Of a DNA stretch of 64,000 bases, positions 64-60,585 are shown piece by piece (positions within the stretch are counted from its first letter, which is position 1; the number at the start of each line of letters is the position of its first letter). The DNA lies in assembly GCA_001871435.1 (NCBI GenBank), contig MNVC01000019.1:218-64217 (forward strand). Direction: 5' to 3'. The notes under the pieces are model-generated. The model was not told the DNA's origin and made no database searches. It saw only the letters and a list, made by a program, of their open reading frames with translations. A program made the position numbers and the translations under genes. The stretch is from Candidatus Magasanikbacteria bacterium CG1_02_32_51. GTDB taxonomy: Bacteria; Patescibacteriota; Patescibacteriia; Magasanikbacterales; UBA922.

Positions 64-177
64 AATGAACTACCTCGCAGCATCGTGCCCAAGGCTGATC
101 AGTCCTCTGGCTGAAGCTGACGAGGTATTAAACCTTGTCCGCCTTGCCGTGCACGCCTTGGGCTGTGGGCGGATTAA
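64..177. repeat. GC-rich structured repeat element, copy A (in the + sense upstream of ligT-like gene); 114 bp, inverted relative to copy B at 7580-7693
   Basis: Read directly. gaactacctcgcagcatcgtgcccaaggctgatcagtcctctggctgaagctgacgaggtattaaaccttgtccgccttgccgtgcacgccttgggctgtgggcggattaa is the reverse complement of 7580-7693 with 2-3 mismatches. About 60% GC in a 28% GC background. Internal helices are cctcgcagc/gctgacgagg, gcccaagg/ccttgggc and tccgcc/ggcgga. Confidence 0.85.
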
Positions 178-6438: not shown

Positions 6439-7485
6439 CTATTTCCAATATATTCTATCTGGGTATCTCAAATCTATGTAATTCAAAAAAATATTATTAT
6501 CTATTTTTTCTTTATATAAAGAGTTTAATTTATTTATTTGGGCAGTCACTTCCCTATCAAAACGTGTCTTGATATAAAATCCTTTGTAAGTTTTTATTGT
6601 TAGATCTTGTTTGTTATCTTCAAAGATAAAATATTTTAAAGGAATTTTTTCATTATTATCAAGTTGTTTGAACCAATTTATTAATATAATTACTTCTGCT
6701 TTATCCAAAACATTCTCATTTATATTTACCTCTTGTATATTATTTTTATCATAAATAATGGGATAATTGCCTAAATCTTTTTTTATAGTAGCAATATCTG
6801 GTTCATGCAATTTACCTACTACAATTGTGGTAGTAATACTTTCTCCAGTAATAGTGGTTGTAACTACTTTTTGAGTAATATCTTTCCACTCATAATCACT
6901 TATCTTTCGCATTATTTCTACTATCTTTCCATCTAGATCTACATAGCTATATTCTAAACCATTGTCATAGATAATAGTAGAAATTTTTTCTTGAATAATT
7001 ATAGACAATTTGTTGGGAAAACTTTTTTTGACAATAATTTTTTCAATTGGGTATCTTTCTTTTAAGACGTCTTTTATTTCATTTACATTGGAAAAAACAT
7101 AACTATTTTCTCTTATTAAACCTAATTTTTTATAATTGAGAATACCATTTATTGTTTCCAATAAATCTATTTTTTTTATTCTTTGTAATCCTTCTATTTG
7201 TATATCATTTATATTAAAGAAAGGATGAAAAACAAAGACTGAAAAAATAGTTAGAATGCTTATAATTATAATAAAAAGATTTAAATATATTAGTTTTTTA
7301 CTAGCCTTTTCATGAATAAAAGGGTTCTCTATTTCTCTACCTTGCCAAGCAAAATCGCGTCTAGTTTTTTTGGAGTTAAAAAAATAATTAAAAATTTTTT
7401 TTGTACTTTTTACTTTATTATTGAACTTTCTTTGTAATTTGTGATGGTTTATTATTTTTTTGATTGGCACAGGCTTTTTACACAA
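6439..7485 (-). CDS. ftsQ: cell division protein FtsQ/DivIB-like (POTRA domain); non-ATG (TTG) start as called
   Basis: Basic cytoplasmic N-terminus, a single TM, then a POTRA-like INDIQIEGLQRIKKIDLLETIN segment. There is no Met in the first 100 aa, so an alternative start codon is likely. Confidence 0.5.
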   Translation of the reverse strand: MCKKPVPIKKIINHHKLQRKFNNKVKSTKKIFNYFFNSKKTRRDFAWQGREIENPFIHEKASKKLIYLNLFIIIISILTIFSVFVFHPFFNINDIQIEGLQRIKKIDLLETINGILNYKKLGLIRENSYVFSNVNEIKDVLKERYPIEKIIVKKSFPNKLSIIIQEKISTIIYDNGLEYSYVDLDGKIVEIMRKISDYEWKDITQKVVTTTITGESITTTIVVGKLHEPDIATIKKDLGNYPIIYDKNNIQEVNINENVLDKAEVIILINWFKQLDNNEKIPLKYFIFEDNKQDLTIKTYKGFYIKTRFDREVTAQINKLNSLYKEKIDNNIFLNYIDLRYPDRIYWK

Positions 7486-7530: not shown

Positions 7531-7579
7531 TTTTTTAGTAAATTTTTGCTATGTTATAAATAATTATTTTGTTTGGCAG

Positions 7580-7693
7580 ATTAATCCGCCCACAGCCCAA
7601 GGCGTGCACGGCAAGGCGGACAAGGTTTAATTCCTCGTCAGCTTCAGCCAGAGGACTGATCAGCCTTGGGCACGATGCTGCTAGGTAGTTCAT
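7580..7693. repeat. GC-rich structured repeat element, copy B (inverted; in the sense orientation of, and upstream of, ftsQ)
   Basis: Reverse complement of 64-177 at about 98% identity. Confidence 0.85.
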
Positions 7694-30844: not shown

Positions 30845-31169
30845 AGTATAAATTATGTTGATTTGAACCTATCTTGTAAGCAAAATACCCGCCTTATTGA
30901 CGGGACACTATACAATATAAGACGTAAAATTAGCCAAAATGTTACAGTAGAGTCTTATTTAACTATTTTTTAGGATAAAAAATATGATAAAATTGTCTAA
31001 TTTTTCAAACATAATATCTCTTTGTCATCACCTAAATATTCTATTTAGAAATATAAGATAAAAACAAAAATAATCTCAAACAAAATTTTTATTGAAAAAA
31101 TAAAAACTTTGGTTGAGTGGGAAGGCATTTTCTCCTTTGTAAATGCTTATTCCCAACCCCCCTTGTTGT

Positions 31170-31571
31170 TCAGTTCTTAGACACAGGCTTGTACGAGGAG
31201 TGATGATGGACGATTTTCCACTCATCCTCAGCCATTCTCTTGGCAAGGAAAGTGAAGCGAGCTTCTACAACCAGTTGTCCATCGTGGGTGGAAAAATCGT
31301 AGAACCCAGCGAGGAGAACAATCTCTTCACCAAACTCCTGAACGACCAATTCTCTAATAATTCCTCGCGGACTACTAGGCATGAAGTCCTCCTGGAAGTA
31401 CTCCAAGGCACCACTCACACCCCTCTTGAGATCACCCGACATAGTTGGTAGAAAAGTGGCATCATCCGCGTACAACGCGGCGATGACATTTGGTTCATCA
31501 CTATGTAAGGCCTCAAGCCATTTATCTAGGTACTTGTGCATTTTGCCACCTTTCTCAGAAGTAAATACCAA
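31170..31571 (-). CDS. NTF2-like/SnoaL-like small protein (DUF4440 or SgcJ/EcaC-type) on a GC-rich foreign-looking cassette
   Basis: 133 aa; about 50% GC coding sequence against a 28% GC genome; fold assigned from its pattern of hydrophobic and acidic residues. Confidence 0.5.
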   Translation of the reverse strand: MVFTSEKGGKMHKYLDKWLEALHSDEPNVIAALYADDATFLPTMSGDLKRGVSGALEYFQEDFMPSSPRGIIRELVVQEFGEEIVLLAGFYDFSTHDGQLVVEARFTFLAKRMAEDEWKIVHHHSSYKPVSKN

Positions 31572-31604
31572 GGATGGATTCCTTGAAAATTTCTGAGCAT
31601 GCGC

Positions 31605-31636
31605 ATTAGAATAATACTATAGCAATCCACTGTCAA
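31605..31636 (-). promoter_or_regulatory. near-consensus sigma70-type promoter (TTGACA-N17-TATTCT / N14-TATTAT) carried on the GC-rich cassette
   Basis: Minus-sense ttgacagtggattgctatagtattattct, about 35 nt upstream of the cassette gene's ATG. Confidence 0.4.
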
Positions 31637-31760
31637 CCACCAAACCCTTGACAAAGTAAAATTTAATGTTCTATTTTAAATTCATCTAGTACTAATGATG
31701 AAGTGTAATAAAAAACACTAATTTTTAAAAAATAGTGTTTTATATATAAACAATTTGAAT

Positions 31761-47551: not shown

Positions 47552-48088
47552 TTATTTGATTACATTTTCTACATAATCTACTGTGGAATGCAAAAGTTGT
47601 AAAGCTTGAGGCAAAAGAGGTAAAAAAATAGAAGCAATACTACTCAAGATTGGAGCTAATGTTGAATGTGCCAAACCCGTCATTACTTTTTCAGAAAGTG
47701 GAATTCTCTCCACAAAATAAACAAAAAGGCCAACACTCAAGATTCCTTCTATTAGACCAAATCCTAAACCAAACAGATGATTGAAAGTTTTTACAAAAGG
47801 AATAATAGATACTATCTTAAAAATTTTATCAACAAACCAAAATAAAACACCAATAGCACTAGTAATGATAAAAAAGGCTATTATAAACATTAAAACTTTA
47901 CTTGTATTGGCATGCCAACCAGTAAAAGATGAAAGCCAATTTGCCAAATCCTGATAATATCTACCAGCAAGATAAACACCCAAAAAAGTACCAACAAGAG
48001 AACCAAAGGCTCTAACAAATCCAGTCCAAAAACCATAAATGCCAAAACCACCAATAATTATAAGTAAAATAATGTCAGTAATATGCAT
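47552..48088 (-). CDS. cvpA: CvpA family membrane protein
   Basis: Four TM helices and an N-terminal DIILLIIIGGFGIYGFWTGF typical of CvpA. Confidence 0.55.
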   Translation of the reverse strand: MHITDIILLIIIGGFGIYGFWTGFVRAFGSLVGTFLGVYLAGRYYQDLANWLSSFTGWHANTSKVLMFIIAFFIITSAIGVLFWFVDKIFKIVSIIPFVKTFNHLFGLGFGLIEGILSVGLFVYFVERIPLSEKVMTGLAHSTLAPILSSIASIFLPLLPQALQLLHSTVDYVENVIK

Positions 48089-48142
48089 ACAAAAGCAATA
48101 ATATAATAATTATATTTTACTATAAAAATAGTAAAAAGTAAA

Positions 48143-48336
48143 CAAAAAAAGCCCCTATGGGGCAATTATATTGAAGATGTGAGTGGACAGGCACGATCTT
48201 CAAAAAAATTACTCAACGTGGAAAGCCTATAAGGAGGTAACGGCACATCGCGTCAAGGTGTCTTCGAGAAGCCTCAGATCCAAGTTTTCCACACACACAT
48301 GGATACTGAGTTTTTCGCACCTGCCACACTCACAAA
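48143..48336 (-). ncRNA. candidate rod-like sRNA (6S-like) with its own promoter and intrinsic terminator
   Basis: The minus-strand transcript starts near gugagugUGGCAGG (48333) and closes with CCUGUCCAcucac. Internal helices UGGAAAA/UUUCCA and GAAAAACUCA/UGAGuaaUUUUUU give a long irregular hairpin, ending in gccccauaggggc plus a U8 run (48143-48163). TTGACA at 48363-48368 in minus sense. GC enriched. The only overlapping ORF (48183-48437, +) looks spurious. Confidence 0.35.
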
Positions 48337-48433
48337 TAGAGTATTGCACTTTTTCAAGCCTTTGTCAAGTATCTAAACAAATAAAATTACCCTTAGTTAA
48401 GGCAATTTTATTTATTAATTTAAAAAAAATATC

Positions 48434-49963
48434 CTAAATAATATGTTTTTCCAACCTTACAAACAATATTTCAGCTTTTTTGATTTCATTTCCTTCTTTT
48501 AACAACCCCCAATTCTTTTTTTCTGCCAAATTATTTTCTATTTCCAAATTTAATTGAGCCAATATTTTCTTTGCTGTTTCTGGAATTATAGGTACAAGAG
48601 ATAGAGCCAAATGTCTAAGACCTTCCACAAGTTGATAAAGTAAAACAGAAATATTTTCACCAGTCTTTACTTTTGCCCAAGGTTTTTCTTCTGAAATTTT
48701 TACATCAATTTTTGAAACCAAAGAATTGATATTTTTTATTACTTCTTCAAAATCAAATTTTGCAAAGGCAATATCATAATCAACCCAAAACTTTGCTGTT
48801 TCAAAAATATCTTCAGCAACTTTTGGAATTTTATTTTCATTATATTTTTCTATCATGGTTAGTATTCTGGAAGTCAAATTACCAATACCATTTACCAAAT
48901 GGGCAGTATAAAAATCTTCAAAACGAGAGATACTAAAATCTCCATCTTTAGTAGACGAGACAGCCCCAAGTAGATAGTAACGTACAGCATCAGTACCATA
49001 CTTCTCCACTACATCTTTTGGATCTACCACATTACCAATTGATTTACTCATTTTTTCACCCTCAACAGTAAGATAACCATGAATAAATTCTAGAGTTGGC
49101 AGACTTAATCCAGCTGAAATTAACATTGCTGGCCAATATAACACATGAAATTTACCAATACCCTTACCAATTACATGCACAACTTCCCTGTCTTTTTGAT
49201 CTTTTTGCTCCCAATATTTACTAAACAAACTTTCGTCAGCACTACCGAAATTAAGACCTGTAATATAATTTGACAAAGCATCTACCCAAACATACATAAT
49301 CTGATTTTCATCACCTGGAACTTTTACACCCCAATTATGTGCACGCTCTGCACTACGAGAAATACTGAAATCTTCTAATCCCCTATCAATGAAAGCTAAC
49401 CATTCGTTCTTACGAAATTCTGGAGTAATTTTTATAATATTCTTTTCTACCAATTCTTTCAATTTTTCTTGATAGTTGGAAAGTTTGAAAAACCAATTTT
49501 CCTCTTCCACTATTTCTGGTTCAGTTTTGTGTTCTGAGCACTTACCATTTTCTAGCTCATCTTCCTTGTAAAAAGCTTCACAACCAACACAATAAAGACC
49601 TTTATATTTTTTCTTTTCCAAATCTTCTGCCTTAAAATTTGTCCATAATTTTTGAGCACCAATGAAATGTCTCTTTTCTGTGGTACGAATGAAATCATCA
49701 AAGGAAATATTCAAAATATCTTTAAAATCATAAAAAGTTTTGTAGTATTCATCTACAAATTGTTGTACATTTTGACCAAGTTTTTCTGCGGCCTGAACAT
49801 TTTTCAAAGAATTTTCATCAGTCCCCGTCAGAAAAAAAACATCTTTTCCAAGCAACCTCTGATAACGTGCCATCGCATCGGTTTGGACATATTCCAAGGC
49901 ATGACCAACATGTGGTTTACCATTAACATAAGGAATAGCTGTTGAAATGTAATATTTATTCAT
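48434..49963 (-). CDS. metG: methionyl-tRNA synthetase, short form without the C-terminal EMAPII-like domain
   Basis: ISTAIPYVNGKPHVGHALE (HIGH region) and KMSKS (EGEKMSKSIGN); zinc knuckle CVGCEAFY...CSEHK. Confidence 0.9.
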   Translation of the reverse strand: MNKYYISTAIPYVNGKPHVGHALEYVQTDAMARYQRLLGKDVFFLTGTDENSLKNVQAAEKLGQNVQQFVDEYYKTFYDFKDILNISFDDFIRTTEKRHFIGAQKLWTNFKAEDLEKKKYKGLYCVGCEAFYKEDELENGKCSEHKTEPEIVEEENWFFKLSNYQEKLKELVEKNIIKITPEFRKNEWLAFIDRGLEDFSISRSAERAHNWGVKVPGDENQIMYVWVDALSNYITGLNFGSADESLFSKYWEQKDQKDREVVHVIGKGIGKFHVLYWPAMLISAGLSLPTLEFIHGYLTVEGEKMSKSIGNVVDPKDVVEKYGTDAVRYYLLGAVSSTKDGDFSISRFEDFYTAHLVNGIGNLTSRILTMIEKYNENKIPKVAEDIFETAKFWVDYDIAFAKFDFEEVIKNINSLVSKIDVKISEEKPWAKVKTGENISVLLYQLVEGLRHLALSLVPIIPETAKKILAQLNLEIENNLAEKKNWGLLKEGNEIKKAEILFVRLEKHII

Positions 49964-60320: not shown

Positions 60321-60348
60321 TTGATATTAATAAAAAACGTGATACAAT
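60321..60348 (+). promoter_or_regulatory. sigma70-like promoter TTGATA-N16-TACAAT driving the GC-rich ncRNA candidate
   Basis: ttgata at 60321-60326 and tacaat at 60343-60348. Confidence 0.45.
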
Positions 60349-60349
60349 A

Positions 60350-60585
60350 GATGTGCTGGAGTAGTTCTGGAGGGGTTCTACAATCTTCAACCAGTCTGTT
60401 GGAGGCCGGTACAAAGTGCAGAGATATATGCGACTTGCCTGTTATTCCTAACTGACAAAGGAGGTGGAGGGCAAGTTTGGCTCCCAGTTAATGACGCTTA
60501 TCTACGTCGGAGCCGGATAGGTCAAAGTTTGGGAAGACTTAGACCTTGATGTCATATTCTCTGCACTCTTCTTCCCACCATTTTA
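60350..60585 (+). ncRNA. candidate structured ncRNA of about 230 nt, class undetermined
   Basis: About 48% GC island in a 325-bp ORF-free gap. Long-range helix gugcagaga (60413-60421) / ucucugcac (60559-60567). ggaggccgg and ggagccggauagg motifs. The 3' end reads cccacca. Confidence 0.3.

Follow-up and report, generated by a model that had tools for sequence, protein, structure and literature searches.

A small RNA gene in the metG-cvpA gap of a Candidatus Magasanikbacteria bacterium, with a predicted three-way-junction fold and a C-rich loop

The 6S RNA is a rod in which a closing stem and an apical stem flank a largely unpaired, two-sided central bubble, and the 3' half of this bubble carries a "-10-like" recognition element (PMC8876501). 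A second described system, the RsaE/RoxS RNA, uses C-rich motifs to pair with G-rich sites in its targets (PMC6158497). Searching the literature for 6S RNA in the Candidate Phyla Radiation or Patescibacteria, we found nothing relevant. A preliminary description of one locus from this radiation had nevertheless proposed a 6S-like rod, with its own promoter and terminator, in the intergenic gap between metG and cvpA. We followed up that proposal by analyzing the fold, the transcription signals and the relatives of the element.

The DNA analyzed, referred to here as the window, is a stretch of 64,000 nucleotides from a Candidatus Magasanikbacteria (Patescibacteria) organism with a tiny genome. 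It is AT rich, with a GC content of 31%. Its CvpA is identical to an NCBI entry named Candidatus Magasanikbacteria, and the nearest MetG loci all come from Magasanikbacteria assemblies. The genes at the locus lie on the minus strand in the order rsmI-like methylase, metG, gap, cvpA, tatD, and atp operon. The gap between the metG stop and the cvpA start spans 345 bp, larger than the 290 bp first given. It was correctly described as enriched in GC: it contains an island that reaches 44 to 47% in 100-nt windows.

The minus strand of the gap carries a TTGACA box 17 nt upstream of an AATACT hexamer, as had been pointed out. We found that the -10 box is also preceded by a TG, and that TTGACA-17-TGcAATACT is the best promoter-like match within 1.5 kb, with agreement at 10 of 12 positions. 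Transcription is predicted from the sequence to start at about 48337-48333, and the closing stem of the element begins roughly 7 nt after the -10 box. At the other end, the intrinsic terminator GCCCCAUAGGGGC is present as reported, followed by a tract of seven U residues rather than eight. Reading through the sequence of the RNA, we found no anti-terminator (GGGGC) complementary to the terminator arms, and the terminator was not paired with the body of the RNA in the predicted fold.

The flanking DNA holds further transcription signals. A hairpin, AAAAUUGCCUUAACUAAGGGUAAUUUU, sits just past the metG stop, between metG and the small RNA promoter, and is followed by a U-rich run; Rfam gave only chance-level miRNA-like matches at this hairpin. 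On the downstream side, the tatagtaaaat block that precedes cvpA is also found in L002, a related locus that has no small RNA at this site. With the metG hairpin upstream and a promoter-like block of cvpA's own downstream, the element is framed as a separate transcription unit. It has the generic marks of a stand-alone small RNA, namely a promoter, an intrinsic terminator, a structure conserved on one strand, and no conserved open reading frame (ORF). We conclude that it is a separate non-coding small RNA gene of about 185 to 190 nt that occupies about 48335 to 48144 on the minus strand, with transcription predicted. The positions of its features are given in Table 1.

Table 1. Features of the small RNA gene and its flanks, in window coordinates
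Feature	Position	Strand	Basis or remark
metG	49963-48434	-	stop at 48434
Putative metG terminator, hairpin AAAAUUGCCUUAACUAAGGGUAAUUUU then U-rich run	48383..48409	-	read from sequence
-35 box TTGACA	48363..48368	-	common to all 10 related elements, as is the 17-nt spacer
Extended -10 box TGcAATACT (AATACT 48345-48340)	48340..48348	-	AATACT lies 17 nt after TTGACA
P1 5' strand (UGUGAGUG-U-GGCAGGUGCGA), one bulged U	48315..48334	-	MFE and centroid agree; compensatory changes versus L187, L001B and L005
J1/2, A-rich junction	48311..48314	-	GAAAAAC conserved in the window element, L187 and L001B
P2 hairpin (CUCAG-UAUCCA ... UGGAU-CUGAG)	48273..48310	-	fold
P3, long irregular hairpin	48198..48271	-	fold
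P3 apical loop CCUCCU within UUACCUCCUUAUA, pyrimidine-only, anti-Shine-Dalgarno-like	48232..48237	-	unpaired probability >0.8
P1 3' strand (UCGUGCCUGUC-CACUCACA)	48178..48196	-	fold and comparison of P1 across lineages
Alternative hairpin UGAAGAU (48202-48196) / AUCUUCA (48178-48172)	48172..48202	-	p = 0.004 versus shuffled flanks
Intrinsic terminator GCCCCAUAGGGGC (48163-48151) + U7	48144..48163	-	14 nt past P1
Promoter-like site for cvpA, TTTACT-17-TAAAAT	48114..48142	-	downstream of the small RNA terminator
cvpA	48088-47552	-	start at 48088

The minus-strand RNA folded with a minimum free energy (MFE) of -70.3 kcal/mol, against -47 kcal/mol for dinucleotide shuffles (z = -5.6 to -6.3), and none of 200 shuffles folded as well. 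The plus strand was weaker (-55.8 kcal/mol; z = -3.7). The presence of G-U pairs fixes the strand of the structure, which is thus a structure of RNA and not of DNA. The predicted fold is a Y-shaped three-way junction, made up of a closing stem (P1), a hairpin (P2), and a long third arm (P3). In P1, the 5' segment GUGAGUGUGGCAGG pairs with the 3' segment CCUGUCCACUCAC, which lies about 120 nt downstream, over 19 bp with one bulged U. The pairing of the transcript ends that had been proposed is thus borne out. The pairings suggested for the interior (GAAAAACUCA with UGAGuaaUUUUUU, and UGGAAAA with UUUCCA) can be drawn from the sequence; imposed on the fold, however, this rod reached only -56.1 kcal/mol, 14 kcal/mol worse than the favored three-way junction.

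We then compared the element with known families. At the Rfam 15 gathering score, no family matched the window element or any of 10 related loci, and a search at E<=10 with the window element and four short loci carrying relatives returned no 6S family (RF00013, 6S-Flavo, and related models) and no other relevant one. All full-size members fold as three-way junctions. A two-sided central bubble was absent from every member: the largest two-sided internal loop was 4x4 nt (8x5 in the paralogue L001A), and the 3' side of the junction measured 0 to 3 nt. With no Rfam match, no central bubble, and an energetically worse rod, neither membership in the 6S family nor the 6S-like rod of the preliminary description is supported. 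SRP RNA, RNase P RNA, and tmRNA, which that description had listed for checking alongside 6S, were rejected for lack of an Rfam match; ARAGORN found no tmRNA gene in the window.

To place the element among its relatives, we searched genome and metagenome collections with MetG and CvpA as anchors and assembled 193 loci. Ten related elements were found, all between metG and cvpA in close Magasanikbacteria relatives; this small sample amounts to about nine distinct sequences from about seven genomes, with about 10 kb examined per genome. An element occupied the site only where MetG identity was at least 76% and CvpA identity at least 80%. It was absent from the metG-cvpA site in L002 (87% MetG identity), in L179, and in each of the more distant Magasanikbacteria in the sample. 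Its absence at the site in so close a relative as L002 indicates that the element is dispensable or has moved. Every one of the 10 relatives had a TTGAC[AT]-17-TAnnnT promoter, a closing stem 3 to 10 nt past the -10 box, and a terminator of its own. The independent gene with its own promoter and terminator, as first described for the window, is therefore a layout shared by all of them. Fold z-scores for the 11 elements ranged from -3.6 to -11.1. The distance from the element to the cvpA start was 55 to 70 nt, even in L001, where two extra ORFs lie between metG and the element.

The elements fall into three subtypes. The window element groups with L187 and L001B in a window type, L003b, L004, L171, and L165 form a sister type, and L005 and L088 make up a shorter type; there are further copies in L001 (a tandem extra, L001A) and L003 (a short one, L003a). 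The core sequence of P1 is kept across subtypes and the interior is hypervariable. The stems and flanks of L005 and L088, for example, are identical, and their interiors are very different. When we searched 80 MetG-anchored loci with the window element by nhmmer, only one weak match was returned, L001B. From 99 sources, a covariance model of the sister subtype, R1, recovered the four sequences it was trained on and no others; run unfiltered on the other subtypes, it picked up a generic long stem and nothing else, at no more than 11 bits. Since the subtypes are mutually unalignable by both methods, their orthology rests on position and architecture. The last of the searches made with CvpA and MetG homologues and their contigs yielded nothing further.

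The two ORFs that separate metG from the small RNAs in L001 (6524-7105), the closest relative with tandem copies, encode hydrophobic products of 88 and 105 amino acids and are also present in L163 (1297-1877). They had no Pfam match, and the window has no counterpart of them. Near metG in other Patescibacteria we noted two unrelated end-paired RNAs (L031 9526-9647 and L070 3778-3894), each with a closing stem of 14 to 21 bp, a structured interior, an intrinsic terminator, and no Rfam match. Small RNAs with paired ends may be widespread in the radiation.

Covariation, which the preliminary description had named as a check on the structure, was found both in the sister subtype and in P1. The sister-subtype consensus is a three-way junction of 55 pairs with 96.7% of cells paired. 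Twenty-three of the 55 pairs were changed on both sides, and none of 500 shuffles did as well; in a control in which partners were slid by 1 to 3 columns, at most four double-change pairs were seen. In the window subtype, P1 kept 17 to 19 of its 19 to 20 pairs over the four lineages compared and showed compensatory pair types in eight columns; its register was set by hand because MAFFT shifted it at the bulge. MAFFT and RNAalifold applied to the three window-type sequences misaligned P2 and gave a poor consensus. L187 and L001B do have a hairpin at the position of P2, with sequences that cannot be aligned to that of the window. The inner stem of P3 (CUUGACG/CGUUGAG) and its UUUCC internal loop are common to the window element, L187, and L001B.

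The tip of P3 is the sole internal segment that is reliably exposed. At nt 94 to 106, its loop was unpaired with a probability above 0.8 in six elements from five lineages, reading CCUCCU in the window, CCUCCUU in L003b, L004, and L171, CCCCCU in L187, and CUCCC in L165. Equivalents of this C-rich loop were thus present in 5 of the 10 related elements; L001B, L005, and L088 lacked it.

A second feature surrounds the 3' strand of P1. In the window, L001A, and L005, the 6 to 10 nt just before this strand are complementary to those just after it. A hairpin formed by these segments would enclose the P1 3' strand within its loop, and it is mutually exclusive with P1. The L001A counterpart, ACUUGUGUGU/ACACUCAAGU, differs in sequence from that of the window (p<0.002), and L005 has UUGAGCU/AGCUCAA (p = 0.034). 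The alternative hairpin was not significant in L001B and was absent from the sister (L004) subtype.

An exposed CCUCCU raises the matter of Shine-Dalgarno sequences. In the 25 nt before the start codon, none of 51 window genes (ORFs of at least 150 amino acids) had a GGAG or GAGG, and the upstream sequence was A/T rich only. Judged from these sequences, the organism appears not to use Shine-Dalgarno-led initiation. A duplex scan of the 64-kb window gave no convincing partner for the loop near a start codon. With no apparent Shine-Dalgarno use and no target in 64 kb, the loop would be aimed at rare G-rich sites elsewhere, or would mimic the 16S rRNA tail for a different partner. On the plus strand of the window, CCTCCT occurs six times and AGGAGG four times.

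Our preferred reading is that the element belongs to a previously uncatalogued, fast-evolving, clade-restricted small RNA family that most likely acts in trans through its C-rich loop. We infer the mechanism tentatively and put the probability of this reading as a whole at about 0.4. The paired ends and compact junction would form a nuclease-resistant scaffold, and the exposed C-rich loop would be the working part, pairing in trans with rare G-rich (AAGGAGG-like) target sites in the manner of Firmicute small RNAs such as RsaE/RoxS. Through the alternative 3' hairpin, P1 might be able to open into a second state.

Three other places in the window drew our attention. Between genes for a Translin-family protein and a Mur ligase, a GC-rich stretch of about 250 nt (60330-60585, minus strand) has a multi-branched predicted fold closed by GUGCAGAGA.../...UCUCUGCAC (z = -3.4) and no Rfam match. 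Part of the CCACCUCCUUUG that it carries falls in an internal loop of this fold, and the stretch may encode another structured RNA, so far unannotated, with an anti-Shine-Dalgarno-like motif; the presence of CCACCUCCUUUG would fit a small class of RNAs that mimic the 16S tail. Within a 917-nt gap (30845-31760) lies an ORF of about 125 amino acids (~31170-31545, minus strand), with a GC content of up to 55% and preceded by AAAGGTGG. This ORF has the look of a gene acquired horizontally from a foreign source, and it is among the few with a Shine-Dalgarno-like sequence. Finally, two near-identical GC-rich (~60%) elements of about 115 nt, with two mismatches in their aligned core, lie at 64-177 (plus strand) and 7575-7690 (minus strand). 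The first lies shortly upstream of a same-strand gene for a LigT-like phosphoesterase (204-767), and the second stands in the same relation to the gene of an FtsQ/POTRA protein (6439-7485). The pair had no Rfam match; it could represent a repeat, or else a leader or small RNA common to both places.

The first alternative to trans-acting base pairing is that the RNA binds a protein or serves as a decoy. Either the P1 core (GUGGACGGACA / UGUCCGUCCAC, bulged) or the ACCUCCUU loop, as a copy of the 3' tail of 16S rRNA, would then titrate a protein or RNA that recognizes the anti-Shine-Dalgarno tail. The contrast between a P1 core conserved across subtypes, and identical in L005 and L088, and a hypervariable interior is consistent with such a role, as are the rarity of ACCUCCUU in the window and the apparent lack of Shine-Dalgarno use. 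We nevertheless regard it as doubtful: no candidate partner was found, several members lack the loop motif, and the likeness to the 16S tail spans 8 nt, with the host 16S rRNA lying outside the window. A more specific version, which seems to us improbable, would make the ACCUCCUU loop a mimic of the anti-Shine-Dalgarno tail, in a bacterium that has abandoned Shine-Dalgarno-led initiation, that captures either rare AAGGAGG-bearing RNAs (foreign, phage, or from a few special genes) or a factor that recognizes the 16S tail, with P1 opening and the alternative 3' hairpin forming a two-state switch.

Although membership in the 6S family is not supported, the element might still be a functional analogue of one. 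Bound to RNA polymerase holoenzyme, the RNA would offer its P1 5' strand and A-rich junction as the template for a short product RNA, and UGAAGAU/AUCUUCA would trap the displaced P1 3' strand, releasing the polymerase. Its size, strong promoter and terminator of its own, and long closing stem agree with this, and the GAAAAAC junction beside the P1 5' strand is conserved throughout the window type. In three lineages, the non-random alternative hairpin that encloses the P1 3' strand also recalls the product-RNA-induced refolding of 6S RNAs (PMC8876501). The sister subtype has no such hairpin, however, and P2 and P3 are stable GC-rich helices, with covariation support from that subtype. The energies of the two folds, the lack of a two-sided bubble, and the Rfam searches of all members, at the thresholds tried, speak against it as well. 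So does its patchy, clade-restricted presence at this site, judged from about 10 kb per genome, with tandem divergent copies, which is unlike that of a housekeeping 6S RNA. We think this analogy quite unlikely to hold.

We judged about equally unlikely a cis-acting leader of cvpA, whether riboswitch- or attenuator-like or a strong promoter-terminator unit that tunes read-through into the gene. The element always lies directly upstream of cvpA at a nearly fixed distance, L001 included, and compact three-way junctions are a common architecture of aptamers, which this one would fit. Its terminator, however, is a strong hairpin that stands by itself, and the RNA offers it no alternative partner. 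Since nothing competes for pairing with the terminator arms and a promoter-like site serves cvpA separately, we rejected a riboswitch or attenuator. The promoter-like block of cvpA lies past the terminator, in L002 too; tandem copies each have a promoter; the interior varies greatly between close relatives, unlike a ligand pocket; and in distant relatives cvpA directly follows metG with no leader at all.

Less probable still is a selfish or relic DNA element, either a miniature transposable element of palindromic form or a retron-like msr/msd unit in which the a1/a2 repeats would make up the closing stem. The long terminal inverted repeat, the GC-rich insert in an AT-rich genome, the patchy presence, and the tandem copies would suit one. 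Retron non-coding RNAs are laid out as a closing stem, a short hairpin, and a long hairpin, which P1, P2, and P3 resemble. A transposable element was rejected on copy number: the window holds a single copy, and a descriptor scan of about 1.3 Mb of related loci found the class solely at this locus. A retron was rejected because no reverse transcriptase gene adjoins the element in the window or in the related loci. No transposase or integrase lies nearby either, and the neighbors are housekeeping genes (rsmI, metG, cvpA, tatD, and atp). The promoter and terminator are perfectly placed in every copy, and the G-U pairs point to a strand-specific RNA structure.

A gene for a small protein can be dismissed. 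The only ORF in the gap, of 84 amino acids (48183-48437, plus strand), was rightly described as lacking support and has no Pfam match. An ORF of 91 amino acids lies on the equivalent strand in L187, and the two share no significant similarity (best segment, 11 amino acids; E = 0.03). Among the relatives, neither reading frame nor ORF length is conserved, and indels do not come in multiples of three, the core being 115 nt in L005 and 106 nt in L088. Chance alone is expected to produce long open frames where a GC-rich island interrupts an AT-rich genome.

The absence of Rfam matches and of relevant literature on 6S RNA in these bacteria suggests that the non-coding RNAs of these ultra-small, host-dependent organisms are little charted. 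A well-defined small RNA gene offers an entry point into the post-transcriptional regulation of Patescibacteria, and this one has clear boundaries, a Y fold supported by covariation, and an exposed anti-Shine-Dalgarno-like loop in an organism without apparent Shine-Dalgarno use. It also illustrates fast turnover, with three unalignable subtypes, tandem copies, and losses at one locus among organisms whose MetG proteins are 76 to 88% identical. The narrow distribution sets a bound on its value.

Set beside described systems, the small RNA shows partial likenesses to several. Like a retron msr/msd, it has terminal inverted repeats that pair, followed by a short and then a long hairpin; unlike one, it has a terminator directly after the stem and no reverse transcriptase or effector within several kilobases of any locus. 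With the three-way-junction riboswitches (such as the purine and TPP classes) it shares a P1-closed junction, a position upstream of a gene, and a terminator that follows. It differs from them in that its junction and interior are not conserved in sequence, it has no anti-terminator and no Rfam match, and the downstream gene has its own promoter.

The likeness to 6S RNA (SsrS; RF00013) lies in a length of about 190 nt, a sigma-70-type promoter of its own, an intrinsic terminator, ends joined in a long irregular closing stem, a structure better conserved than the sequence, and a possible alternative hairpin when the closing stem opens. The window RNA departs from 6S RNA in having no covariance-model match and no two-sided bubble, in forming a three-way junction rather than a rod, and in its narrow, patchy distribution with tandem divergent copies. 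RsaE/RoxS and the other staphylococcal Rsa RNAs bear no sequence or Rfam similarity to it and carry two to four motifs where it has one; its ends are locked in a 19-bp stem, and in a host that shows no Shine-Dalgarno sequences the classic targets are missing. It shares with them a pyrimidine-only C-rich motif in a hairpin loop and a stand-alone gene with a terminator, and, like the Firmicute Rsa RNAs, it belongs to a host without an obvious Hfq-type hub.
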